From Shigella phage Henu12: a stretch of DNA of 64,000 bases. Positions 187 to 36,262 of the stretch are shown here, piece by piece. The DNA is taken from sequence record OQ834936; one strand, given 5' to 3'. Within the stretch, counting starts at the first letter, position 1. Each line of letters opens with the position of its first letter. Position numbers and translations under genes: made by a program. The notes beneath the pieces were generated by a model. The model saw only the letters and a program-made list of their open reading frames with translations, searched no databases and was not told the DNA's origin.

Positions 187-1308
187 TTAAACTTCACGTT
201 TACGCTGAGAAATCAGTTCACCAGCAGTACCTACAACTACGTGAAGTGCTTCTGAACCATCCCACTCTTTGATGATTTCACGGCGACTATTTACAATCGC
301 TGCAACTTCATAACGGGAAGCTCGCATTTTCATGTCGTTGTAGTCAGTTGGTACTGAAACAACATCACGAGGATGAACACGAACTTTCAGGATAGTGTCA
401 CCAGAGAAGCTAGTTACATAATCCCAAGCACCAACGTGCAGACCCTGAGAGCAGGTTACATGGCGGTTATTATCAACCATCCAACGTGGCATCTCTACAA
501 TGTTACCCAAATCATTTGGAACTTTGCAGGTACGAGAGTCAAACAGTTTACCACCACGAGTTGTGACTTTCTTCCAACCGATGATATAACCTTCTTCATC
601 AATTTCAACATCGAGGTGTGATACGAAGCCCCAAAGTTGTTCTACAGAGTCTTTTGATGGGTTTTCCATCAGTTTTTCAAAGAATGCAATCAGTCGAACA
701 AAGCCATTATCACCTTTCTTCATCATATCCAGAATACGGTCTACCAGAGTTGAGCGCATCTGAACAGCACCGTAATACAGGTTGTCACCTTTGATGGTTA
801 CAGCACCTTGAGTGAAGTTCTCAATAGACTTGCGAATGTTCATCAGTTCAAAAGCTTTCTTGTACTCACCTGAAACAACAGCCATTACAATATCAGTGTA
901 GTTAGGGTGAGTTGACTCAACAATCTCAGACTCTGCACCGAAAGTCATGATAACAGAATCACCAGTAATCATGTATTCAATCTGGCTGTTATTCTGCATT
1001 GCTTCATGCAGAGCATTTACAGGTTCTGCTTTGACTGCTTCTTTAACAGCTTTTGCAACAGGTTTCTGCTTAGATACCTTCTTGGTCGCTTTAACTTTCT
1101 TAGCACTCTTTGCAATATCTTTCAGAGTCTTTGCAGGTTTTGCTTTGGTTTTCCCTGACAGCAGCGTTGCTTCATGGCGCTCTACAGCACGACCTACCGA
1201 ACGGGTTGAAGTGTTATACTTCAGAGCGATTGCAGTTTTGGTCAGTTTACCTTCTTTAACCAGTGCATAGATTTCTGCGTCGATTTGTGCTTTAGTCTTA
1301 GTAGTCAT
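187..1308 (-). CDS. rIIB: rIIB-like protein
   Basis: 373 aa ORF immediately downstream of and co-oriented with rIIA; Lys-rich N-terminal region; C-terminal motif VHPRDVVSVPTDYNDMKMR; assignment rests mainly on synteny. Confidence 0.55.
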   Translation of the reverse strand: MTTKTKAQIDAEIYALVKEGKLTKTAIALKYNTSTRSVGRAVERHEATLLSGKTKAKPAKTLKDIAKSAKKVKATKKVSKQKPVAKAVKEAVKAEPVNALHEAMQNNSQIEYMITGDSVIMTFGAESEIVESTHPNYTDIVMAVVSGEYKKAFELMNIRKSIENFTQGAVTIKGDNLYYGAVQMRSTLVDRILDMMKKGDNGFVRLIAFFEKLMENPSKDSVEQLWGFVSHLDVEIDEEGYIIGWKKVTTRGGKLFDSRTCKVPNDLGNIVEMPRWMVDNNRHVTCSQGLHVGAWDYVTSFSGDTILKVRVHPRDVVSVPTDYNDMKMRASRYEVAAIVNSRREIIKEWDGSEALHVVVGTAGELISQRKREV

Positions 1309-1358
1309 TTCAATATCTCTCTTTGTTGTTTAAAATTACTTAGTGGTTCGTATTCTAA

Positions 1359-1374
1359 GGGGCTTTTCAGCCCC
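1359..1374 (-). other. GC stem-loop GGGGCU-GAAA-AGCCCC (minus sense), no U-tract
   Basis: Perfect 6-bp inverted repeat between rIIA stop and rIIB start; identical copy at 6211-6226. Confidence 0.5.
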
Positions 1375-1388
1375 TGTCAAACTATTTT

Positions 1389-3761
1389 TTAATCCCAGCA
1401 TACAGTATCTTCTGGAATGCTCTTAGTGTCAAAACCTAAAAACTTACCAACTTCGACGGGTGATACTTTATTCCAATCCAGATTAGAAAGCAAGAAGTTT
1501 TCTTTACGGCGTTTCTCAAAGTAATCTTTGAACTTACTTTCAAGACGCTTCTTAGCGTTATCCAGAACCTTTCTTGGCTTACAAGAGCCTCTCATATTCC
1601 TGCGAATGGTATCAAGAGTGCTGGTAATATCTTTGTAAGCAACTGGTGCAGCAGTGTATGCCAAGCGTCCAAACATTGCTTCTATAGCCTCTTCATTCCC
1701 CTCTAAGAAAATAGTCTTCTTAAAGTCTTTACTGTAAATGTGGCCTCTGGACTTACGCTTATCAGCAAACATAAAGTTTCGAGAAATCACATTACAATCA
1801 GTAATATCATGATTATTAGTCATATATTGGTGAGTCAAGAAACGATGATACTCAATCCAATGTGTAGCATCAATGAAATCTTTCATCACTTGTTCATTGA
1901 CTTCTGTCCAGTCTTCAGGAATCTTTTTCCAGTTGGCTTTACGGAAGACATAAACTGACTGTCCAGTTAACTCTGTCATCAACGTTGCAGCACGTTCTGG
2001 TGAACATGAGAAGATTCCACCAATCACTTCATCACTCTGTGCTTTGATATACAGTTGTGGTTCTTCAATCTCATCAAAGTTCTCTTTAACCTCTGTATAA
2101 CGAATCATGTAAGTATTTGGACATATAAATGCTTTATACAGTTTTACAACACCACGTACAATAGTACGTTTTTCATAGTGGTGCTCTTTAGATGACATTG
2201 TATGCACACTTAACAGACTCTTGTCAAGCATATGCAAAGCTACAAACTCATCAAATTGCTGCTGACTGCTGAACAAGAAAGCAATACCATTGTAGCGACG
2301 GAAGTTAGAGTCTTCCTGTTCACGGTCACGGCAAGCTCCACGGATAATCTGGTTTTTACCAGTTGTCTTCTCAGACCCGTTCTTGTTTCGACGGTCATTA
2401 ATAAGGAACAAATAGTTGCTCAACTTGTCTTTACTCATTGCACCAAAGATACTAAACATTGCTGCATCTTGTGAATAAGTTGCTGAAGTTGCTCGAATAC
2501 GGTTCTCCAGACTGCTGTACTTGTAGTATGCTACAGGTTCATACAGATTACCAATATTAGGAACTGGATTACCATCTTTGTCAAGCCTCAAGTTACCTGC
2601 ATCATCTTTCAAGAATGACGGAGAACCATCTGCTTCAGTTAACTGACCACGACGGATACCTAACAGTTTTTGTTCAAGCTTTTTCAAGTTCTGGCCTTGC
2701 CATTCCAGAGAATCTTGGACGTGAATAAAGATTTCACGAGCCTCCTTCCTCATGGTATCATAGGCTTGAGCAGCATCAATCAGAGTTGGCTTGTTAGCAA
2801 TCTCTTTTACCACATCTTCTACGATTGTCTTAGTGATTTTCTTCACAGCTTCAACAATCTTGGTCTTAGTGGTCTCATTCATCTGCAATGCTTCACGAGA
2901 TGCAGCAATAGCCACTGAACCAATTGGCATGTAGATGTTAACAAGGTCTACAGCACTACGGAAGAACTGAGGCAGAATGTTTGTAAACTCTGAGCCAAGC
3001 AACTCACCCATTTCAACCGGATAAGCAATGTTACCCATGATTACATTGAAATGGACGCTGTTACTATTTGAGCGCCAGTTCTCTTTGTACTTCATTGCAT
3101 CATAGACACCATCTTCACGAGAAATGGAAGTCATTGCTTCAAGAATGTCATAGTACTCAACATTACACTCTGGCTTAACTTTAAAGTACGAGTATACATT
3201 GCTCGCTTCTTCATGAAACTTGTTGATACGGTTATCGGATACCGCTACTCGAACAGCTAAACCATTTGGCTCTGTAGTTGGGTTAGTAGTCAACTTAGTT
3301 ACTTGAGGGATACCATTCTCAAGGTAAACTGAGTATTTGTTAACTACACCATCAACATAGCTTGATACAGTGAATGACTGAGCAATTGCAAATGGGGACT
3401 TTGAACCGATACCCATAGCACCAATGTAGTCGTTTGAATCGTTCTTTGTAGATTCTCCATAGGTCATGTAAAGTTTCATAACTTTATCATGAGTCAGTCC
3501 TGTACCAAAGTCACGAACTTCAAAGAATGGCTCGAAACGAGTTGGTAAGTGAACCAAGAAAGGTTTATCAACGTTACCAGAATCAATGTGAGCATCTACT
3601 GCGTTACATGACAATTCACGAATTACAGCACGTTCTTTATATGTGTAAACACCTGAGCTTAGAAGACTGAACATTTCAGGTGTCATCTTAATCTGAGCCT
3701 GAGAGGTTTCCAGTGTACTTGAGCTTTTAATTACCGTTGCGTGGTCATTTACCATGCGCAT
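1389..3761 (-). CDS. rIIA: rIIA protein (GHKL/Bergerat-fold ATPase domain)
   Basis: 790 aa; N-terminal motifs ELSCNAVDAH, DFGTGL, GAMGIGSKS typical of GHKL ATPases as in T4 rIIA; followed by rIIB-like gene. Confidence 0.8.
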   Translation of the reverse strand: MRMVNDHATVIKSSSTLETSQAQIKMTPEMFSLLSSGVYTYKERAVIRELSCNAVDAHIDSGNVDKPFLVHLPTRFEPFFEVRDFGTGLTHDKVMKLYMTYGESTKNDSNDYIGAMGIGSKSPFAIAQSFTVSSYVDGVVNKYSVYLENGIPQVTKLTTNPTTEPNGLAVRVAVSDNRINKFHEEASNVYSYFKVKPECNVEYYDILEAMTSISREDGVYDAMKYKENWRSNSNSVHFNVIMGNIAYPVEMGELLGSEFTNILPQFFRSAVDLVNIYMPIGSVAIAASREALQMNETTKTKIVEAVKKITKTIVEDVVKEIANKPTLIDAAQAYDTMRKEAREIFIHVQDSLEWQGQNLKKLEQKLLGIRRGQLTEADGSPSFLKDDAGNLRLDKDGNPVPNIGNLYEPVAYYKYSSLENRIRATSATYSQDAAMFSIFGAMSKDKLSNYLFLINDRRNKNGSEKTTGKNQIIRGACRDREQEDSNFRRYNGIAFLFSSQQQFDEFVALHMLDKSLLSVHTMSSKEHHYEKRTIVRGVVKLYKAFICPNTYMIRYTEVKENFDEIEEPQLYIKAQSDEVIGGIFSCSPERAATLMTELTGQSVYVFRKANWKKIPEDWTEVNEQVMKDFIDATHWIEYHRFLTHQYMTNNHDITDCNVISRNFMFADKRKSRGHIYSKDFKKTIFLEGNEEAIEAMFGRLAYTAAPVAYKDITSTLDTIRRNMRGSCKPRKVLDNAKKRLESKFKDYFEKRRKENFLLSNLDWNKVSPVEVGKFLGFDTKSIPEDTVCWD

Positions 3762-3793
3762 AAGAATATCTCCTTAGTTGTCGATGTGGCAAA

Positions 3794-3822
3794 CTATATA
3801 ATTTTATAGATGCCACTGTCAA
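3794..3822 (-). promoter_or_regulatory. sigma70-like promoter upstream of rIIA
   Basis: Minus strand reads TTGACA, 16-17 nt spacer, TATATA, about 30 nt upstream of the rIIA RBS and ATG. Confidence 0.5.
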
Positions 3823-3823
3823 G

Positions 3824-4003
3824 TTACTTTTTAAATTTCTTTCCAGTTCCATTACAGTAAGGGCAACAATGACCTATACCAACTACCCCAGAACCTTCAC
3901 ACTCATCACAAGGTTCAGTCTCTGAGAAGTACTTGCATAGTAACATTGCAATAGCAACTATACAACCGAGTGAAAGAACAATTTCTAACCAATAACCTTG
4001 CAT
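3824..4003 (-). CDS. small membrane-anchored DnaJ-type zinc-finger protein (59 aa, below ORF-track cutoff)
   Basis: ATG at 4003 preceded by AGGAG 8 nt upstream; translation MQGYWLEIVLSLGCIVAIAMLLCKYFSETEPCDECEGSGVVGIGHCCPYCNGTGKKFKK has one hydrophobic helix and two CxxCxGxG repeats. Confidence 0.4.
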   Translation of the reverse strand: MQGYWLEIVLSLGCIVAIAMLLCKYFSETEPCDECEGSGVVGIGHCCPYCNGTGKKFKK

Positions 4004-4332
4004 ACCTTATCTCCTATAGTTCTGAATAGGACAAAACTTCTGTCATGAACAATACTCGAAGATACTGCAAAACTATTCTCAAGTATCTTTTTGTTTGGAT
4101 TGTAAAATTCTTCTTGAAACAAATCAAGAGCTTCTTGATGGTTCTGTGGAAGACCTTTGATATAGACCTTCAAAGTAACCGTTGTATAAATCTCAGAAGC
4201 TAACTCTGATTGTGCTGCTTGAAACAGTTCATTGATAAACTTATGACCATCTTCAGGACGCTTAATGTTTTCCCAACGTTCTTCAATGATTAAATTAACA
4301 TTCATCTGTTTAATTTTCATAGTAATCTCCAC
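3985..4332 (-). CDS. hypothetical protein
   Basis: 115 aa ORF, co-oriented, preceded by a terminator and followed by an overlapping small ORF. Confidence 0.45.
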   Translation of the reverse strand: MEITMKIKQMNVNLIIEERWENIKRPEDGHKFINELFQAAQSELASEIYTTVTLKVYIKGLPQNHQEALDLFQEEFYNPNKKILENSFAVSSSIVHDRSFVLFRTIGDKVCKVIG

Positions 4333-4333
4333 A

Positions 4334-4358
4334 AATTAAAAAGGCTCCCGTAGGAGCC
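4334..4358 (-). terminator. intrinsic terminator (GGCUCC-UACG-GGAGCC plus U-tract)
   Basis: 6-bp GC inverted repeat at 4343-4358 with tetraloop and T-run on the minus strand, directly 3' of the Nampt-family gene. Confidence 0.6.
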
Positions 4359-4373
4359 TCTTATCATACTGTT

Positions 4374-6200
4374 TTAAAGTTGCTTGTCAATAGTATTTCG
4401 AACATCACGCAGGTTAACGTAACCATAAGGTTGCGAGTTACTAAATACCAGTTTCAAAGCACTATGACAGTTGTCAATTGCACCTTCAAACTCTGCAAAG
4501 CCAAAACCATCTACAGCTACCAGCTTGTCACCATCCCACATAGGGACAACTCCACCAAAAGCAGACTTCTTAAGACCGCTGTCAGTTTTAGGGTCTTTAG
4601 CCAGCATAATTTCTTGACCATCCATCTGTGCAAGAGTTGCTTTAACAGCAAATGCAAAGGTGTCACGAGTCAGGTACTGATAGGTGTATGAGCCTACACC
4701 AAACACTACGTTAGAACTTGCAAAACCTTTATCAGCAAGACGTGACAGAATCTCATTAGCCCTTTCCAGAGTGATAGAATCACCGTAGATTAGCCCAATG
4801 TGCTCATCCAGTACTTTGTACCCTTTGGAGTTAACAGTGCCACCAAAGATGTTATACAGCGTGTGTATAGCTCCATCAATTTCTGCTGTTAACATACGCT
4901 TCACAGTAAACTGTCCAGTTTTCTGAGCGGTAATCAGGTTGATTGTGTCAATATAATCAAAATCTTCATTTTCAACAACCATCTCATAACCTTCAGAGAT
5001 TAACCAAGCAGAGAACCCAAAACCAATATCAGACATTTCACAATTCAAGATTGTGTCATGCAGATGGGTATTATCTGGTGCAAGACCTTTCATGTGCTTG
5101 TAGAACATTGACTTAGCAGTTTCCCATTCAACGGCTTTGTAACCTGTAACAATGTGAACAGGGTCTCCAGAGTCTGGACGAATTACCAACTTACCATCAC
5201 GATTCAGAATTACATTACGTAGCTCTGGCAGAATCTGTGTAACAGTACGCCAGAAGTTGTAAGTATCTGATACGGCACTTGCAATACCAGTTGGGTAAAC
5301 TTCTGTCAGAAGGCGATGGAAAGTTTCTACCTCACCACGCCAACGTTTGGCATCTAGTAATCCTTCAGACTGCATAATGTACTGTGAGTGAATATCCTCT
5401 TCTGTCAGGTCTTTCATATTCCATGAAATGTTTGCACACATCACAGAGTGTTCAGTTGCTGGTACAGAGTTGCCAATATCACTGATTGTCATAAACTGAC
5501 CATAAGCACGTTTAGCAGTATACACAGCAGGGAAGCTGTCAGTACCTTTAAAGCTGGTCAAGTGACCTACAGCATTAAAAGCATCATCTGTGAAGCCAGA
5601 CATACCACGCATTGCAAAATCATGACACTGCCAAGGTAAATGGAAGTCATTGTCACAGGTCTTGTCAGCCCATTGTTTACAGATACGTTTGTAATGCAGT
5701 GCAATAGTTGCAATCGTACAAGCCTTCCAGATTTCAGCAGAGAAAGCATCTTCAAGGTAACCAGCTACCCAATGGAATCCCTCTACAGTGTTTTTAAAGA
5801 CAATCATCGGGACACGCATAGGGACAATTGTACCTTCCTCTACAGAGTAGACTTCAACAGGTAGGTAACCCAAGTCATGAAGTTCTTCCCAATGTTGACG
5901 ACCAATAGCATCTGCACCAAGGACACCATTCATGATTTCCAAGATTTCGTCAATGGCTTCTTTCTTATCACGTTCAAAGAACGTTGCATTCCAGTGGTCT
6001 ACCAGATAGTCTTTTACAAAACGCTGAATACCAAAGGCTACAACACCATCAATCTCTAACGGAGAGTTAAACCATTTATCTCCACGAGGTGTTAAGTTCA
6101 GCATAAGATACTGTGTAGCATCTGGATACTGGTAGAAATGGCCAGATTTGTAGGCATCTGCATTAAGTGCTGCTGGTACTGCATAAAGTGATTTAGTCAT
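4374..6200 (-). CDS. nicotinamide phosphoribosyltransferase family protein (Nampt/NadV-like; could be a Namat-type NAD+-forming transferase)
   Basis: 608 aa; N-terminus ALNADAYKSGHFYQYP resembles the Nampt start (LLATDSYKVTHYKQYP); GVGSYTYQY-type motifs; about 100 aa longer than canonical Nampt. Confidence 0.8.
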   Translation of the reverse strand: MTKSLYAVPAALNADAYKSGHFYQYPDATQYLMLNLTPRGDKWFNSPLEIDGVVAFGIQRFVKDYLVDHWNATFFERDKKEAIDEILEIMNGVLGADAIGRQHWEELHDLGYLPVEVYSVEEGTIVPMRVPMIVFKNTVEGFHWVAGYLEDAFSAEIWKACTIATIALHYKRICKQWADKTCDNDFHLPWQCHDFAMRGMSGFTDDAFNAVGHLTSFKGTDSFPAVYTAKRAYGQFMTISDIGNSVPATEHSVMCANISWNMKDLTEEDIHSQYIMQSEGLLDAKRWRGEVETFHRLLTEVYPTGIASAVSDTYNFWRTVTQILPELRNVILNRDGKLVIRPDSGDPVHIVTGYKAVEWETAKSMFYKHMKGLAPDNTHLHDTILNCEMSDIGFGFSAWLISEGYEMVVENEDFDYIDTINLITAQKTGQFTVKRMLTAEIDGAIHTLYNIFGGTVNSKGYKVLDEHIGLIYGDSITLERANEILSRLADKGFASSNVVFGVGSYTYQYLTRDTFAFAVKATLAQMDGQEIMLAKDPKTDSGLKKSAFGGVVPMWDGDKLVAVDGFGFAEFEGAIDNCHSALKLVFSNSQPYGYVNLRDVRNTIDKQL

Positions 6201-6210
6201 CTTTTTATCT

Positions 6211-6226
6211 CTCTCAAAGTGGGGCT
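6211..6226 (-). other. GC stem-loop GGGGCU-GAAA-AGCCCC (minus sense), no U-tract
   Basis: Identical to the 1359-1374 hairpin; lies between the Prs-family stop and the Nampt-family RBS. Confidence 0.5.
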
Positions 6227-6244
6227 TTTCAGCCCCTAAAGTTG

Positions 6245-7144
6245 TTATTCAATATTTGCTACGGTCACTTGTGAGAAGTGGGAAAGACCACGGTCTTTTT
6301 CATCCCCTAGTGAGTTTGTAGTGTAGATATGGTCGATACCATTGTCAAGGAGATTTTCAACACCTTTAGAGAAAATCCCATGAGTGACATACAGTTCCAC
6401 ACGTTCTGCTCCAGCTTCACGAAGATACTTTGCAGCCTCGATAAAGGTTCGACCACCGTCACAGATATCATCCAGAATCATGACAGTCTTACCTGTCAAG
6501 TCTACATCATCAAGGATTCGCATACCAGTGATTTCACCAGTTTTCAGGTTTCGTACCTTAGCCATTGTAATATAAGGTTTATCAACCTCTTTAGCAGCCT
6601 CTTCAGTCTTCTTAGCTGCACCTGCATCTGGAGCCACTAAGTAATCAATGCGTGGGTCACTTGCAAAGTGGACTGCTGCCTCTTTTTGAGGGAGGTTGTA
6701 GAAGCTCTTAAACAAATTCTCTGCAACATTACTGTGAGTATCCAGAGCACATACTGCATCGAACTCCATAGCATTTACAAGATTTGCAAAGACTTTAAGT
6801 GCTGCTGCATCACCTTTAAACATGTGACGGTCATAGCGAGCATTTGGTAAGAATCCAAAGACAACAGTTTTCAGAGTTGCTTTCTGAGGAATCAAACGGT
6901 CAATTGCTTCTTTAGCCATAGCTAATGCAAAGAGTGTGTCTTTGTCATAACCTTGTACTGTGAAGACTACGTTTTCAATCTTACCAGCAGCATGTTCAGC
7001 AAAGTCTACTAAGTCTTCTGAGAAGTTACCACCAATCTCCCCAGAAGGGAACTGGATAATGTTGAAGGTCTCTTGATGAGAACCTTTGGAATTTGAATTA
7101 AGTAGAACTCGAATAGTAGTTTTCATAATATTTCTCTCAGTCAA
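6245..7144 (-). CDS. ribose-phosphate pyrophosphokinase family protein (Prs-like; could be an ADP-ribose pyrophosphokinase)
   Basis: 299 aa; Prs-like motifs FPSGEIGGNF (cf. RFSDGE), FGFLPNARYDR (cf. GYARQDRR) and the PRPP-binding loop MILDDICDGGRT. Confidence 0.8.
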   Translation of the reverse strand: MTERNIMKTTIRVLLNSNSKGSHQETFNIIQFPSGEIGGNFSEDLVDFAEHAAGKIENVVFTVQGYDKDTLFALAMAKEAIDRLIPQKATLKTVVFGFLPNARYDRHMFKGDAAALKVFANLVNAMEFDAVCALDTHSNVAENLFKSFYNLPQKEAAVHFASDPRIDYLVAPDAGAAKKTEEAAKEVDKPYITMAKVRNLKTGEITGMRILDDVDLTGKTVMILDDICDGGRTFIEAAKYLREAGAERVELYVTHGIFSKGVENLLDNGIDHIYTTNSLGDEKDRGLSHFSQVTVANIE

Positions 7145-26129: not shown

Positions 26130-28829
26130 ATGGACAATGTAGATTTCGAAAAATTACATTTGGTTGGTGATACAGAAACTGATGGGTTGCTCCTTGAGTT
26201 TACAAAAGCACACGTAATGGCTTTCGCAGACTATAAAGATGACAGTGATGAACCTGCTGTGTGGGTTTTCACTGATGAGCCTATTCTTGGTCACAAGTAT
26301 ACAAAATACATCAAAGGTGGTCTGCGTGAAGGTGTTGAGTTTGCACTGAAAGCTAAACGTCTTTGTATCCACAATGGTCTTGGTTATGACTGGTGGGTGT
26401 TTAATCACATTGCACCTGACCTGTGGAACTTTGAGAATCCTAAGTGTAAGCCTTGGAGTGACTTCTTTCAGGATTCACTTATCCAATCTCGCGTACAGTG
26501 GATGGATAGACCTACACCAAAAGGTTACAAAGGTGCTCATGGTTTGGCTGCATGGGGTGCTCGTGTTGGTGTTCGTAAACCAGAGATTGAAGAGTGGGGT
26601 GTATGGAATGCAGAGATTCTTACTCGTGTTGTAGAAGATATTAAGATTAACGCCAAAACTAAACGTGCTCTTGATAATGAGTACCTTAAGCTTAAGAAGT
26701 GTGGTGTTGACACTTATGAAACCTATATGCGAGCTAAAGAAACATCTTTCTGGATGAGCCAGCAAGCTATCAACGGTTGGAAAGCTGATGTAGAACTTAT
26801 GCAGTTCCATGTTAAAGAACTTGACAAGTTAACTAATGAGTTAGCTGCTGAGGTTGAGCCACACCTGCCACCAACTATCAAGACAAAAGGTAAGGTCACA
26901 GGTGAAGAGTTTGCTAAGTCTTGGAATGAGTATGTGGATACATTTGGTCACGTTGACGGCTTAAAAAGGATTACCAAGTACCCTAAGACAAAGTATCGTG
27001 AACAGATGCGTGAAGGTGAGTTGAAGCAATACCCTATCAAGCCATATGGAAAGCCAACTACAAAGATTTTTAACGTTGAGAAACGTAACTGCTACACACC
27101 AACTAATACGGTTACCAAAGAAGAGTACCCTGAAGGTTTCGTAGCAATGAAAGATGCTCGTGCAGTTTGTAATGAACTGAATGAGAAGATTGGGAAGAAG
27201 TGTAAAGATTGGAAACCAGTTAAGACTGTGAAGATTGTGAAGTACTATAATGTGCATGTTGTAAATCACTTCGAGTTGGAGTCAAGTCGCTACACTGGTT
27301 TGATTGATGCACCATTCACACCAATTGAGTTTGAAGTTTCACGAATGACTCAGGTAGCTGTGGTGAAGGATTACTTAAAATCTGTTGGTTGGATTCCTGA
27401 TGATTGGAACTACAAAAAAGATTCTGATGGTCGTCCGGTTAAGGTTTGCAGATTCAAAGACAACAAAAAGATGATTCGCAAACATCCTAAGTGGGATGAG
27501 ATGGTTGAGCGTTGTGGGTTGAACTATATTGAGCATGAAGGTGTCTATTACATCGAGCATAACTGGTCTGTTAAGAAGTACACAGATGTGCTTGAGCCTT
27601 GCTTGATTAGGACTTCACCAAAGCTTACAGAGTCTTCTTATGATACAATCGAAGGTGAGCTTGGACAGAAGATTGCGAAGTACTATACTTTGATGCACCG
27701 ACGCAGGACTATTGAGAACTCAAAGGATGATGAGAAAGGTTGGCTGAACCAGATTCGTCCAGATGGTCGTTTGAGTGCAGGTGCAATGGTGTTTGGTACT
27801 TCTACTGGACGTATGACTCAGTATGGTATTGTAAACGTACCTTCTGGTGCTGCTGTTTACGGTGAGCCAATGAGGGCAGTGTGGATTTGTGAAGAGGGAA
27901 CCAACGTAGTATCTGTTGATATGAACTCTGCACAGCTTGTACTACTCTGTAACTTCATGGGTGATAAAGACTTCACCAAAGCGGTAACAGAGGGTAAAGA
28001 AGAGATTGAGTTTGTTCGTCAAGAGGATGGAAGATACTACTGCAAACACTTTGACCAGTATCTGAATCCAGAGATTGACAAGTATCTGCGTTATGACTCT
28101 GAAAACGATTTGTACGTAGTTTACTCAGGGACTGATGCTCACACTCTGAACAGTATCTACTTCAGCCTTAATGATGAGCAAGATATCTTGACTTGTCGTG
28201 CTACTCAGGATGAGAATCTTCTTCATGAGATTAGCAAGGGACGTAAGAAAGCTAAGAATGGTATCTATGCCCTGTTGTTCGGTGCAGGTGATGAGAAGTT
28301 TGCTAAAACAATTAAAGCAGCAACTACTCAGGAAGGTGCATTGACTAAGCAGACTTACTTTGTGCGCTTGCCGAAGATTAAGAAACTGTTAGACAACTTG
28401 GAAGCTGATTTCAAAGCAACTAAGAAAGCACTTGAAGAGGTGTTTGGTAAAACTGCTGCGATAGCTAAAGGTGGTTTTGTGAAGGTTGCTGGAGCTTGGC
28501 TGTGGTGTAAGTCTCCACACAAGCTGTTAAATTACCTTTTGATGGGTTCAGAAAGTCAAGTCCAGAATGAAGCAATTAACCTTGCATGTCGTCGTATGAT
28601 TGATGAAGGTTTGATGAAGTTGAATGGTCGTAAACCAGCTATTGGCGCTCGCTTACTCTGTGCTTACCACGACGAAACAAGTTGGGAATGTCCAGAGCAC
28701 ATGACAGCAGATGTGAAAGCAGTAACTGACTGGTATTATGGTCAAGCATCTAAGAACCTTGGACTAAGGAAAGAAACCTTGGTAACAGGTACTGGTAAAG
28801 TTGGTAAGAGCTGGTATGAGGTACATTGA
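26130..28829 (+). CDS. DNA polymerase, family A, with 3'-5' exonuclease domain
   Basis: 899 aa; Exo I motif DTETDG near the N-terminus; motif C YHDE; terminal His characteristic of Pol I-type enzymes. Confidence 0.9.
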   Translation: MDNVDFEKLHLVGDTETDGLLLEFTKAHVMAFADYKDDSDEPAVWVFTDEPILGHKYTKYIKGGLREGVEFALKAKRLCIHNGLGYDWWVFNHIAPDLWNFENPKCKPWSDFFQDSLIQSRVQWMDRPTPKGYKGAHGLAAWGARVGVRKPEIEEWGVWNAEILTRVVEDIKINAKTKRALDNEYLKLKKCGVDTYETYMRAKETSFWMSQQAINGWKADVELMQFHVKELDKLTNELAAEVEPHLPPTIKTKGKVTGEEFAKSWNEYVDTFGHVDGLKRITKYPKTKYREQMREGELKQYPIKPYGKPTTKIFNVEKRNCYTPTNTVTKEEYPEGFVAMKDARAVCNELNEKIGKKCKDWKPVKTVKIVKYYNVHVVNHFELESSRYTGLIDAPFTPIEFEVSRMTQVAVVKDYLKSVGWIPDDWNYKKDSDGRPVKVCRFKDNKKMIRKHPKWDEMVERCGLNYIEHEGVYYIEHNWSVKKYTDVLEPCLIRTSPKLTESSYDTIEGELGQKIAKYYTLMHRRRTIENSKDDEKGWLNQIRPDGRLSAGAMVFGTSTGRMTQYGIVNVPSGAAVYGEPMRAVWICEEGTNVVSVDMNSAQLVLLCNFMGDKDFTKAVTEGKEEIEFVRQEDGRYYCKHFDQYLNPEIDKYLRYDSENDLYVVYSGTDAHTLNSIYFSLNDEQDILTCRATQDENLLHEISKGRKKAKNGIYALLFGAGDEKFAKTIKAATTQEGALTKQTYFVRLPKIKKLLDNLEADFKATKKALEEVFGKTAAIAKGGFVKVAGAWLWCKSPHKLLNYLLMGSESQVQNEAINLACRRMIDEGLMKLNGRKPAIGARLLCAYHDETSWECPEHMTADVKAVTDWYYGQASKNLGLRKETLVTGTGKVGKSWYEVH

Positions 28830-29341
28830 TGCGAGATTGTGGATTCACACATGAACAGTTAAAGTCTTGGTTAAACTATGACCCCGAAACAGGGGTCTTA
28901 ACGTGGATTGGCAGGCCTCCACATAGTAGTAGGGTGGTTATTGGGAGCCAAGCCGGAGCAATCAAGCGCACAAGGTCTGGTGTGTATATGCACACACAGA
29001 TTTTAGGATACAGGACAGGCAATCACCGAATTGCTTGGTTCTGGATGACAGGCAAGTGGCCTGATAAACACATTGACCACAAAGATGGAGATGGTTTGAA
29101 TAACGCTTGGGACAATCTCAGGGAGGCCACAAAAGAACAGAACATGTCTAATAGGAGACAACCCAGAACATCAAAAAACTTAAAAGGTACAAGTAGAAGC
29201 AAGTCTGGTAAGTGGATAGCCCAGATTAACCATAATGGCAAGACTATACATATAGGTACATACACAACAGAAGAAGAAGCCCATAAAGCTTACTGTGAAG
29301 CTGCTATTAAACTCCACGGAGAGTTTGCAAAACTAAGTTGA
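28826..29341 (+). CDS. HNH homing endonuclease with AP2 domain
   Basis: 171 aa; HNH motif IDHKDGDGLNNAWDNLREATKEQNMSN and AP2-like segment; shares YDPETGV(L/F)TW with 18747-19247; start overlaps the polymerase stop. Confidence 0.75.
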   Translation: MMRDCGFTHEQLKSWLNYDPETGVLTWIGRPPHSSRVVIGSQAGAIKRTRSGVYMHTQILGYRTGNHRIAWFWMTGKWPDKHIDHKDGDGLNNAWDNLREATKEQNMSNRRQPRTSKNLKGTSRSKSGKWIAQINHNGKTIHIGTYTTEEEAHKAYCEAAIKLHGEFAKLS

Positions 29342-29392: not shown

Positions 29393-29611
29393 ATGACACT
29401 TTCAGACGTTATCCAACAACTTCAGGTAAGTGGTTACACTCAAGAGCAAATTGATGAGCTAAACATCATATCCATGCCAAACCGTTTTGTTAAAGCTTTT
29501 GGGTTAGAAGTTGTAAGGATGGCACATATACTCATTGTGGATGGTCTTCTTATCAAAGACAGAACTGGTGCTTTGAAAGGTAAGAGAATCGATATCACGG
29601 AGATATTATGA
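29393..29611 (+). CDS. hypothetical protein
   Basis: 72 aa ORF with AGGAGG RBS. Confidence 0.45.
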   Translation: MTLSDVIQQLQVSGYTQEQIDELNIISMPNRFVKAFGLEVVRMAHILIVDGLLIKDRTGALKGKRIDITEIL

Positions 29612-29817
29612 GTCACCGTGGTAGAACTCATCTTGCCATGATGCAAGGGGCTTCAAAAGAGACTATCAAGAATCGTAAGAAAACTCTTTTTGACAGAATG
29701 AATAGACTCATTGACAATGCAAGTCTACCTAACTCTGAAAAGGTTTTCTTGAAAGGGAATCTGAAGAGTATTGCACAGGAACTTATTGACATTGAATTTT
29801 GGAGACACCAAAAATGA
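29608..29817 (+). CDS. hypothetical protein
   Basis: 69 aa basic ORF, translationally coupled to neighbours. Confidence 0.45.
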   Translation: MSHRGRTHLAMMQGASKETIKNRKKTLFDRMNRLIDNASLPNSEKVFLKGNLKSIAQELIDIEFWRHQK

Positions 29818-30017
29818 CTTATGAAGAAGCTATTGAAGCCATGAAGAGTGGTCACAAAGTACGTAATGAAAATTTCACATCTGATGAGTTCTTCGAAATG
29901 AAAGATGGGAAGATTGTCTGTGAAATGGGTTACCCAATGGCTACATGGTATAAGGGAGAACCTTGGCAGAAAACTGGATGGAGTATCTTTAATGAAATTT
30001 TACACCATTTGGGGTAG
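29814..30017 (+). CDS. DUF2829-like small protein (candidate Tad2-like anti-Thoeris sponge)
   Basis: 68 aa from the ATG in ATGA overlap with the upstream stop; MTYEEAIEAMKSGHKVRNENF...W pattern resembles the DUF2829 N-terminal signature. Confidence 0.4.
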   Translation: MTYEEAIEAMKSGHKVRNENFTSDEFFEMKDGKIVCEMGYPMATWYKGEPWQKTGWSIFNEILHHLG

Positions 30018-30135
30018 AGTCGGTAAAGGTTATGACTGGATTCTCCTTAAAACAAATGTTAAAAGTAATGAGATAGTTTACTACAAAGTCTATTACCATA
30101 AAACTTTTAGAGAGGTAGAGTATCGTGAGCAGTAG
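29992..30135 (+). CDS. hypothetical small protein
   Basis: 47 aa from an ATG with GGAG RBS; shares a W-R-G-x-GYDW-hydrophobic motif with the next ORF. Confidence 0.3.
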   Translation: MKFYTIWGRVGKGYDWILLKTNVKSNEIVYYKVYYHKTFREVEYREQ

Positions 30136-30376
30136 AGAAGAAGAAGCTTTAGCAATCTTCAAGAATGAAGATAAATCAATATCTTTTGTATCAGAGGCTT
30201 GGTGCAGGGGCTTAGGTTATGATTGGTATCTCTTCTTATGTGCTAAGAAAGATGTTAAACCAGTTGATGAAACCCGATTCAAAGAACTGTATACTGTCTG
30301 CCAAGAGGGTTATGAAGAACACTACGAAGGCTCTTTGAATCCTGTAAATTCAAAAGCTTCAGATTTATTTTATTGA
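30125..30376 (+). CDS. hypothetical protein (paralog-like to 29992-30135)
   Basis: 83 aa, GTG start in the ORF track; motif WCRGLGYDWYLFL. Confidence 0.4.
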   Translation: MSSREEEALAIFKNEDKSISFVSEAWCRGLGYDWYLFLCAKKDVKPVDETRFKELYTVCQEGYEEHYEGSLNPVNSKASDLFY

Positions 30377-30386
30377 GAGGTCTAAA

Positions 30387-30623
30387 ATGTTAAAATTATT
30401 GATACCAGCTTTAGTAGTTCTACTAGTTGGGTGTAACCCTTCTTACGAGAATAAGGATGCTTCTTACAGACTTCCTCCAGAAATGCAAGACTGCAAGATT
30501 TATAAGCTTAATGGTGATGCAACTAGCAGGGATGTTATTGTAGTTCGCTGTCCAAATTCTCAGACGACTACTTCTTACAAGTATGGAAAGAATAGTCAGT
30601 CACATACTACTGTTTTTGATTGA
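30387..30623 (+). CDS. putative lipoprotein
   Basis: 78 aa; signal peptide with lipobox LLVGC. Confidence 0.5.
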   Translation: MLKLLIPALVVLLVGCNPSYENKDASYRLPPEMQDCKIYKLNGDATSRDVIVVRCPNSQTTTSYKYGKNSQSHTTVFD

Positions 30624-30633
30624 GGATATTAAT

Positions 30634-30840
30634 ATGCAGGTTCTGGTAAATTTTATCTATAAGTATGAAAACATCTTCAGCACCATGACTGAAGGTCAAC
30701 GCAATCCAGTTATCCCACGGGAAGGGGAGATTGTTGAGATTAATGACTGGAACCACAGAGTTGCAGAGGTCAAGCATAAACTTAAAGATGGTTATGACCA
30801 CCAAGTTGTAAATGTGTATTTAGAAGGTAAGTGGCAATGA
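30634..30840 (+). CDS. hypothetical protein
   Basis: 68 aa from an ATG preceded by GAGG. Confidence 0.4.
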   Translation: MQVLVNFIYKYENIFSTMTEGQRNPVIPREGEIVEINDWNHRVAEVKHKLKDGYDHQVVNVYLEGKWQ

Positions 30841-30931
30841 GCATCTTACATATCATCTCTGAAGATTTTGGAGGGTGCTCTTGGCACTCATTTTTCACAA
30901 AAGGTTGTCTAGCTTGTGAGGCACGTAAAAA

Positions 30932-32032
30932 ATGACAATTCTGTACAAACAAAACAAAGATGGTTCTTTCAACGTTTGGTCATGTGTTGCTGTAGGTGAT
31001 AAAGTTGTTACAACCTACGGTAAAGAAAATGGCAAGATGATGTTCGAAGAGTACACAGCAGAACCAAAGAACATTGGTAAGAAGAATGAGCGTAATGCTG
31101 AACAGCAAGCTCTCTTTGAAGTTGCTGCTAAGTACAAGAAGCAGGTTGACCGTAAAGGGTATGCTTACACAAAGTCTGAAGCAGAGAATGTTGAGAAGGT
31201 TGGTGTACAGCTTGCTCAGGATGCTTCCAAGATAAGTCACAAGAAGTATCTGGTATTCCCTGCCGATGCTCAACCTAAACTTGATGGTGTTCGTTGCAGG
31301 ATTTCAAGAGATGCTGACTCAGAAAGTTTTACGGCATATTCTCGTGAGAACACGGTATACAACATTCCTGTAGAGTTGATTCCTGATGTTCTTCTTATGC
31401 TGAAACTGCACAAAGATGTTGAGGATTTCGATGGTGAGATTTATGCTCATGGTTGGGACTTGGAAGATATTGTATCTATGATTAAGAATGCTGACAATCC
31501 AGACCGTCACCTTCTTAAGTTCTACTGGTATGATATCTGTGACAAGACTAAATCTTGGCCTGAGCGTCGTGAAGTTATTGAGACTTCACCTTTAAATGAC
31601 CTGAGAAATGGCTGTAGAGTTGTCCCTGTTAAATCTCGTCGTGTTAACTCTTGGGAAGAATTTGACACTGCTCATGATAAGTGGGTTGAAGCGAAGTTTG
31701 AAGGGGCAATGTACCGTTCAATCTCCCCAGATTCATTCTATGAGTGTGGTCACCGTTCATACTTCTTGATTAAACATAAGAAGATGCACACCAAAGAGTT
31801 CACAGTAACGGGTGTGAAGACTGATAAGCGTGGTCATGGCAAGTTCGTTGTAGAGACTCTTCCTAACGTCTTTGTAGATGTTTCATGGAAAACTACACAC
31901 GAGAAGAAAAAGTATCTTGCTGAACATCCTGAAGAGTTTATCGGGAAGCCTTTAACGGTTCAGTTCCAGAAGATGACTCGTAAGGGTTCTTTACAGTTCC
32001 CTGTTGGGCTAGTAATTCGAGACTATGAATAG
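30932..32032 (+). CDS. ATP-dependent DNA ligase
   Basis: 366 aa; adenylation motif I KLDGVRC; size matches T7-type ligases. Confidence 0.8.
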   Translation: MTILYKQNKDGSFNVWSCVAVGDKVVTTYGKENGKMMFEEYTAEPKNIGKKNERNAEQQALFEVAAKYKKQVDRKGYAYTKSEAENVEKVGVQLAQDASKISHKKYLVFPADAQPKLDGVRCRISRDADSESFTAYSRENTVYNIPVELIPDVLLMLKLHKDVEDFDGEIYAHGWDLEDIVSMIKNADNPDRHLLKFYWYDICDKTKSWPERREVIETSPLNDLRNGCRVVPVKSRRVNSWEEFDTAHDKWVEAKFEGAMYRSISPDSFYECGHRSYFLIKHKKMHTKEFTVTGVKTDKRGHGKFVVETLPNVFVDVSWKTTHEKKKYLAEHPEEFIGKPLTVQFQKMTRKGSLQFPVGLVIRDYE

Positions 32033-36232: not shown

Positions 36233-36262
36233 ACAAAAAAGGCTCCCGTAAAAAGGAGCCTT
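36233..36262. terminator. bidirectional terminator between convergent genes
   Basis: GGCTCC/GGAGCC 6-bp inverted repeat with 8-nt loop, A-run on one side and T-rich run on the other; sits between the td stop and the stop of the minus-strand gene. Confidence 0.55.

Follow-up and report, generated by a model that had tools for sequence, protein, structure and literature searches.

Introduction

Tad2 is the most widely distributed known family of phage sponges. Its list of ligands, still expanding, comprises 3'cADPR, His-ADPR, N7-cADPR, cyclic dinucleotides and cUMP/cCMP. This choice of ligand is very plastic, and Thoeris of types I, II and IV, CBASS and Pycsar are all inhibited by one member or another. 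Sponges in general were characterized by Tal et al. as short proteins forming homo-oligomers, with pockets which are located between protomers and almost always positively charged.

In the available structures, Tad2 consists of helix alpha1 and a five-stranded sheet, with extended loops carrying helices alpha2 and alpha3. Helix alpha2 and strand beta2 form a V-shaped dimer, and a pair of such dimers interlocks along alpha1. Protomers that do not belong to the same dimer enclose the gcADPR pocket, to which the beta1-beta2 and beta3-beta4 loops, beta4 and alpha3 contribute. Ligand contacts in SPO1 Tad2 are made by W25, N26, W73, S76, T78 and D79; in HgmTad2, mutants W21A/N22A and S90A/T92A/D93A show markedly reduced gcADPR binding. 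An insertion following beta2 and preceding the next core strand (residues 36-59 in SPO1 Tad2, 32-72 in HgmTad2) constitutes a separate domain binding cyclic dinucleotides, and the core was termed the gcADPR-binding domain by Li et al.

Here we examine a small gene of Shigella phage Henu12 (record OQ834936), contained in a stretch of 64,000 nucleotides referred to below as the window. The original prediction, made by eye, took its product for a DUF2829-like candidate sponge of the Thoeris signal. Alignments and a structural model indicate that the protein is a miniaturised, divergent and insertion-less member of the Tad2 superfamily, consisting of the core only.

Results

The gene and its genomic context

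The window derives from a myovirus of the genus Mooglevirus (Ounavirinae, FelixO1-like); over segment 29300-30500, it shares 97.4% identity with Citrobacter phages Michonne and Maleficent. The gene lies in a run of plus-strand genes extending from DNA polymerase through DNA ligase and beyond:

26130-28829, plus strand: DNA polymerase (family A)
28826-29341, plus strand: HNH-AP2 homing endonuclease (PF13392 and PF00847), its start overlapping the polymerase stop
29608-29817, plus strand: upstream 69-aa ORF, PHROG 5180 (no assigned function), its TGA overlapping the next ATG (ATGA)
29801-29804, plus strand: GGAG ribosome-binding site, 9 nt before the ATG (read from the sequence)
29814-30017, plus strand: gene of the predicted 67-aa mini Tad2-fold protein, homologue of Michonne gp40; PHROG 3474
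29992-30135, plus strand: downstream 47-aa ORF, PHROG 2381, homologue of Michonne gp41, beginning within the 3' end of the preceding gene
30932-32032, plus strand: DNA ligase, followed by DHFR and thymidylate synthase
36239-36262: bidirectional terminator, end of the plus-strand run

About nine small ORFs separate the homing endonuclease from DNA ligase in the window, and the gene under study is an accessory gene of this polymerase-to-ligase cluster. The endonuclease itself occupies the same spot, directly after the family A polymerase, in related phages. A scan for promoters and terminators gave a result no better than that for shuffled sequence and has no bearing on timing of expression.

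Read directly from the sequence, the ORF opens with ATG at 29814, closes with TAG at 30015-30017 and translates as MTYEEAIEAMKSGHKVRNENFTSDEFFEMKDGKIVCEMGYPMATWYKGEPWQKTGWSIFNEILHHLG (67 residues). Location and translation of the ORF had thus been given correctly, and so had the ATGA overlap with the upstream stop; the ORF is real, but the previously quoted length of 68 aa included the stop codon. In the Michonne record, whose gp40 carries the annotation "hypothetical protein", a ribosome-binding site is annotated at the position equivalent to GGAG. Through the ATGA arrangement, the gene is translationally coupled to the upstream 69-aa ORF. A TTG at 29799 represents an alternative start; nevertheless, homologues begin at the methionine of the MT... 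sequence. The downstream ORF overlaps the final 26 nt of the gene in a different frame. Homologues mostly end near residue 60-63 and the Henu12 protein runs to 67, its C-terminal tail NEILHHLG being lineage-specific and modelled with low confidence.

A family of small proteins widespread in enterobacterial phages

Residues 1-60 of the protein match positions 4-63 of the 64-position profile of PHROG 3474 (E=2.5e-33, 114.7 bits), which marks it as a full-length member of this group of ~60-aa proteins. PHROG 22208 is a C-terminally extended form of PHROG 3474, and both are devoid of functional annotation. Since a word-indexed protein search gave only 13 close relatives, we turned to an exhaustive HMM search covering 1.84 billion representative proteins. 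It yielded 186 clusters (clustering at 50% identity, E<=0.001), most of them stand-alone proteins of 59-70 aa; in a minority, the protein is extended at its C-terminus or the domain is duplicated in tandem.

Using tblastn, we found the family in 454 phage records, mostly enterobacterial, of ~50,700 deposited phage genomes. Klebsiella (169), Escherichia (110) and Salmonella (74) phages prevail, further hosts being Citrobacter, Erwinia, Shigella, Enterobacter and Cronobacter. Lineages concerned are Ounavirinae, T5-like Epseptimavirus, T4-like phages (Moonvirus and Klebsiella phages of ~166-170 kb), rV5-like phages and Phapecoctavirus, together with Erwinia phage Y2. A literature search for the PHROG 3474 family, or for Tad2 in Felixounavirus, returned nothing, and the connection of PHROG 3474 and 22208 to Tad2 is made in the present analysis.

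The family consensus reads MT..EA..AM..GKKV.H..FT.DE....M..G.I..E.GY.....FW........GWSI. Residues A6, G13, F21, E25, E37 and W56 are nearly invariant; among 85 family members, E37 is found in 81, G39 in 74 and Y40 in 63. In four members, the 60-aa domain is tandemly duplicated within one polypeptide, a hint at a possible dimeric unit.

C-terminal extensions of family members have no Pfam match, and in a Pfam scan of 20 extended members, no fusion to sponge domains (Acb4, Sequestin, others) was detected. The 144-aa protein of Phapecoctavirus carries the family domain at its N-terminus, and its gene opens an array of small genes (extracted segment 3486-3920). A different rearrangement is seen in Shigella phage vB_SflM_004, where the N-terminal 36 residues of an 83-aa chimera resemble window ORF 29393-29611 and the remainder corresponds to residues 18-63 of the Henu12 protein. 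Apparently, a deletion joined two genes into one, at the cost of helix alpha1 in the Tad2-like domain.

Relationship to Tad2-like proteins

The sole Pfam match of the protein is PF11195 (Tad2-like; 22.4 bits, E=1.8e-4), limited to profile positions 1-40 of 73 and scoring below the gathering cut-off of 25 bits. The DUF2829 resemblance noticed by eye is therefore real but weak. PF11195 was matched at E<=0.01 by 26 of the 85 family members (best 1.9e-6), and no other Pfam family recurred. The precomputed PF11195 label was carried by none of 52 mini-family proteins, as against all 120 of the canonical matches listed.

More sensitive comparisons were made against a canonical reference, for which a bona fide DUF2829 protein from Lactobacillus phage Lb, proteins related to it and published residue numbers were used. 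When the 85 family members were aligned by hhalign with 61 bona fide PF11195 proteins, a probability of 95.9% (E=5.5e-9) was obtained over the first 42 columns; in global mode, the same two alignments gave 93-95% over 60 columns. Searching all PDB sequences with the family profile placed Tad2 chains 8wjd, 8v3e, 9eib and 8kbi among the best six matches, each individually non-significant (E 0.12-0.58). The profile was used here in place of a single-sequence phmmer search, which gave chance matches only, e.g. LIM domains. By net charge or pI, the mini family cannot be told apart from canonical Tad2.

These alignments show that the protein is homologous to Tad2-like proteins. Because the sub-cut-off score and absent PF11195 labels go together with hhalign support, it is best placed as a remote homologue outside the curated PF11195 boundary. 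We consider its membership in the Tad2 superfamily, by descent and fold, highly probable.

Predicted structure

An AlphaFold2 monomer model, built from the family alignment only and without templates, has a mean pLDDT of 85.6, values below 50 being confined to the last four residues (64-67). According to DSSP, it contains helix 3-11, strands 16-18, 27-30 and 33-36, helix 50-53 and strand 56-58. Combined with alignments and conservation, this gives the following map of elements:

29820-29846, plus strand: helix alpha1, codons 3-11, with conserved E5, A6, A9 and M10; equivalent of Tad2 alpha1 (DSSP, hhalign, conservation)
29865-29888, plus strand: beta1-beta2 loop NENFTSDE, codons 18-25 (hhalign, conservation, published contact residues)
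29892-29921, plus strand: tight beta2-turn-beta3 hairpin, codons 27-36 (model, global hhalign gap)
29922-29933, plus strand: E-M-G-Y, codons 37-40, family motif E-x-G-Y, in the loop equivalent to Tad2 beta3-beta4 (conservation, alignment)
29946-29981, plus strand: WYKGEPWQKTGW, codons 45-56 (global hhalign, conservation, published residues)

In the PDB, the ten best Foldseek matches were without exception chains of SPO1, Spt or Mod Tad2 (TM 0.49-0.64), after which TM falls to 0.31 or less; the query being so short, E-values of 0.5-1.7 are not significant. The comparison thus goes against an unrelated fold. The modelled arrangement, an N-terminal helix on a small antiparallel sheet followed by a short helix and a terminal strand, corresponds to the Tad2 core. 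Among predicted viral structures (BFVD), matches from outside the family were mainly DUF2829 or Thoeris anti-defense 2-like proteins, including proteins of 60-63 aa.

The same BFVD search revealed that Lactobacillus phages Semele and Iacchus each encode at least three paralogous proteins of this fold (117-242 aa) and that 'virus sp. ctML55' has Tad2-like proteins of 63 aa and of 107 aa. These paralogues suggest diversification within single phages.

Tad2 features missing or rebuilt

In canonical Tad2, an insertion of 24-41 residues is found at the position of the hairpin; it carries alpha2 with the V-dimer interface and, in long forms, the cyclic dinucleotide pocket. In the Henu12 model, beta2 and beta3 are joined by a two-residue D-G turn, and the global hhalign alignment opens a gap of ~30 residues opposite the insertion. 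Absence of the insertion domain excludes cyclic dinucleotide binding of the Tad2 type and, alpha2 being lost with it, the described Tad2 tetramer cannot form in the same way.

The gcADPR contact motifs W-N-G and W-x-x-S-x-T-D are likewise missing. F21-T22-S23 occupy the place of W-N-G (hhalign), and residues 46-56 (YKGEPWQKTGW) contain no S-x-T-D, so that contact residues are replaced by F-T-S and by G/E/P. Of these motifs, only the aromatics survive, F21 standing for W and W45 aligning with W73 of SPO1 Tad2 and W87 of HgmTad2; W56 aligns with the C-terminal D-W. In the set of 61 canonical proteins, W21, N22, G23, W76, L77, A78, S79, Q80 and D82 are invariant. The mini family conserves H/N18, F21, E25, E37, G39, Y40 and F/W45 instead, and its segment equivalent to alpha3 is variable (0.6-1.5 bits), the least conserved part of the domain. 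Since the conserved residues fall into the very two loops from which Tad2 forms its gcADPR pocket, they suggest a putative functional site at the pocket position but with different chemistry. The conserved polar residues of this putative pocket are acidic. The protein shares shortness with the sponges of Tal et al.; its conserved acidic residues fit poorly with their positively charged pockets.

The closest structural relative is SPO1 Tad2 (8SME/8SMF/8SMG, 8WJE), the top Foldseek match (TMq 0.64, prob 0.91), at ~17-19% identity. Both are small, phage-encoded, stand-alone proteins, and both follow the order N-terminal helix, beta1, aromatic-bearing loop, beta-hairpin, strand ending in W, short helix and final strand with W. 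SPO1 Tad2, however, has 89 aa and includes alpha2 of the V-shaped dimer within its insertion 36-59, which the Henu12 protein lacks, and its six ligand contacts are reduced here to F21 and W45. HgmTad2 (AcrIIA7; 8KBI-8KBM; 104 aa) differs further by its 41-residue insertion (32-72), which binds cGG/cGAMP and is absent from our protein; its mutationally validated residues W21/N22 and S90/T92/D93 are not conserved. MoTad2/ModTad2 from a Myroides odoratus prophage (9EIB, 8V3E) keeps WNGKG, W-x-P-S-x-S-D and the insertion, and scores 15.5 bits against the mini-family HMM, compared with 109.5 bits for the Henu12 protein.

Among short homologues from the Sorek laboratory, Tad2_80 (73 aa) and Tad2_79 (80 aa) are likewise reduced and depart from WNG and S-x-T-D; they fall outside the mini family, whose HMM gives them scores of 10.8 bits or less. 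The same holds for all 15 screened Tad2 sequences compared with this HMM, 15.5 bits being the maximum. According to Table S2 of the screen, the short or divergent proteins Tad2_69, 75, 78, 80 and 84 inhibited none of seven signalling systems, and Tad2_79, devoid of WNG and S-x-T-D, appears to inhibit type I and IV Thoeris, the columns of that table being partly misaligned. As Tad2_79 and Tad2_80 apparently differ in outcome, size alone cannot predict the behaviour of a new reduced variant. Sequestin, Lockin and TadIV-1 were considered as identities of the Henu12 protein and rejected.

Accessory distribution and allelic variation

The gene is present in ~25 Ounavirinae records, compared with 226 records matching its flanks. 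In Escherichia phage mistaenkt (Suspvirus), it is absent, together with the homologue of downstream gp41, from an otherwise colinear array running from polymerase and HNH endonuclease to ligase (mistaenkt extracted segment 1595-3037 compared with window 29393-30931). Phage phiSUSP1 has the gene in a different arrangement, with other genes swapped. As a whole, the small-gene array between endonuclease and ligase is a variable accessory array among related Ounavirinae.

In other lineages, the genomic context is different. Homologues of Epseptimavirus lie ~9.0-9.2 kb from the left end of T5-like genomes (Escherichia phage Eps7, extracted segment 3501-3701), and in the record of T5-like chee158, the homologue lies under the annotated left terminal repeat; these positions place it putatively in the pre-early terminal repeat. 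The Epseptimavirus-type records 100268_sal2 and chee158 each contain two family matches. In Citrobacter phage Merlin, the homologue is part of a small-gene array between nrdH and gene 55, and homologues of T4-like and rV5-like phages are found within small early-gene arrays. Such a distribution looks like the accessory behaviour typical of anti-defence genes.

Comparison with the Michonne allele revealed a sharply localized divergence. Both flanking genes are 100% identical (window 29608-30376 compared with Michonne extracted segment 6309-7077), including the stretch 29608-29813 immediately upstream. The gene itself differs by 17 substitutions, all located in codons 2-46. Fourteen codons differ, nine of them synonymously and five non-synonymously (S12Q, H14K, S23P, D24E, T44S). 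This patch of substitutions looks like a short recombination tract, presumably under purifying selection. Three of the five non-synonymous changes adjoin the putative pocket residues F21, E25 and W45.

Discussion

The proposal that the gene encodes a Tad2-like sponge holds as far as homology and fold are concerned and fails with respect to the insertion and the polar gcADPR contacts, which are absent. Because the inserted domain and the ligand-contact motif of Tad2 are missing, an anti-Thoeris role of the protein is only plausible and unproven.

As its most likely function we tentatively propose a homo-oligomeric small-molecule sponge with a rebuilt pocket, a reading to which we give somewhat less than an even chance. 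The protein would assemble as a homo-oligomer like other phage sponges, probably as a dimer through the alpha1 face, since it has lost the interface that alpha2 provides. Neighbouring protomers would then enclose a pocket between their beta1-beta2 and beta3-beta4 loops, in which a small host immune signal, probably derived from a nucleotide or ADP-ribose, could be sequestered early in infection. Since pocket chemistry is rebuilt around conserved E25, E37 and Y40, ligand binding probably differs from that of SPO1 Tad2, and the ligand may be other than 3'cADPR. Accessory distribution, conservation of pocket loops, tandem duplications, the ligand plasticity of Tad2 and the apparent activity of the motif-less Tad2_79 all count for a sponge. 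The sub-cut-off Pfam score, lost insertion and contacts, acidic pocket and inactive short homologues count against it, as does the lack of sponge-domain fusions among the 20 extended members.

Some of the same observations could be accommodated if the Tad2 fold were reused in host takeover or regulation for binding some protein or nucleic acid of host or phage origin, with E5, E25 and E37 forming an acidic face. We regard this as a serious competitor, though on balance a doubtful one. The conserved polar residues are acidic and not basic as nucleotide pockets would need, the helix contacting the ligand in Tad2 is variable here, and many members carry diverse C-terminal extensions without a recognisable domain, such as the 144-aa Phapecoctavirus form. 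It also agrees with the inactivity of several divergent Tad2-like proteins in sponge screens and with the position of the gene among replication genes, outside any recognised anti-defence island.

The small-molecule sponge could be extended to the family as a whole: PHROG 3474 might represent unrecognised, widespread ~60-aa sponges derived from Tad2, with a dimeric pocket formed by F21, E25, E37, Y40 and W45 and a signal beyond the range of known sponges. This broader view we hold to be rather unlikely.

Less likely still is a canonical anti-Thoeris sponge, binding 3'cADPR (1''-3' gcADPR) as SPO1 Tad2 does, blocking type I Thoeris and complementing NAD+ salvage genes. NAMPT and PRPP synthetase genes are present in the window, in one minus-strand block (187-7144) with rIIB and rIIA:

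187-1308, minus strand: rIIB
1389-3761, minus strand: rIIA
4374-6200, minus strand: nicotinamide phosphoribosyltransferase (NAMPT)
6245-7144, minus strand: ribose-phosphate pyrophosphokinase (PRPP synthetase)

Besides NAMPT and PRPP synthetase, the correspondence of the predicted fold with the gcADPR-binding domain of Li et al. and the retention of the ligand-sandwiching aromatics as F21 and W45 speak for canonical function. Yet W-N-G and S-x-T-D, where double and triple mutants of HgmTad2 markedly lower gcADPR binding, are replaced, the Tad2 tetramer cannot form alike without alpha2 or the insertion, and the Pfam score stays under its cut-off. With neither the validated contact residues nor the tetramer interface in place, we rate 3'cADPR binding low. 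The original prediction further supposed that the phage counters Thoeris "at two levels", together with its NAD+ genes. This is an attractive hypothesis and we keep it as such, because no NMN adenylyltransferase was recognised among the scanned small ORFs adjoining NAMPT. When all ORFs of the window were scanned by HMM, no second Tad2-like gene came to light.

Finally, a functionless chance or decaying reading frame, as might be suspected from the shortness of the ORF, the overlap of the next gene with its 3' end and the deletion-fusion version in vB_SflM_004, is effectively refuted by the depth of a family conserved in at least five phage lineages, a confident structure model, the prevalence of synonymous over non-synonymous codon changes relative to Michonne (9 against 5) and the presence of a ribosome-binding site and translational coupling. 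Considering the PHROG 3474 match, 454 phage records, 186 clusters and mostly synonymous codon changes, the ORF is a real conserved gene.

The mini family may be missed also by tools built on Tad2 models, since its Pfam score is below cut-off and the PF11195 label is absent from all 52 proteins. Among its carriers are genera that find use in phage therapy, with Klebsiella, E. coli, Salmonella and Citrobacter as targets. If the proteins are sponges, few known ones would be smaller; they would show how little of the Tad2 fold suffices for function and might lead to a new ligand. Should they form a novel sponge class, FelixO1-, T5-, T4- and rV5-like phages of enterobacteria would share a counter-defence missed by current anti-defence finders. 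If they are not sponges, annotation of a Tad2-like fold by itself over-predicts anti-Thoeris function. Either outcome would sharpen the prediction of which phages escape signalling-based defences.
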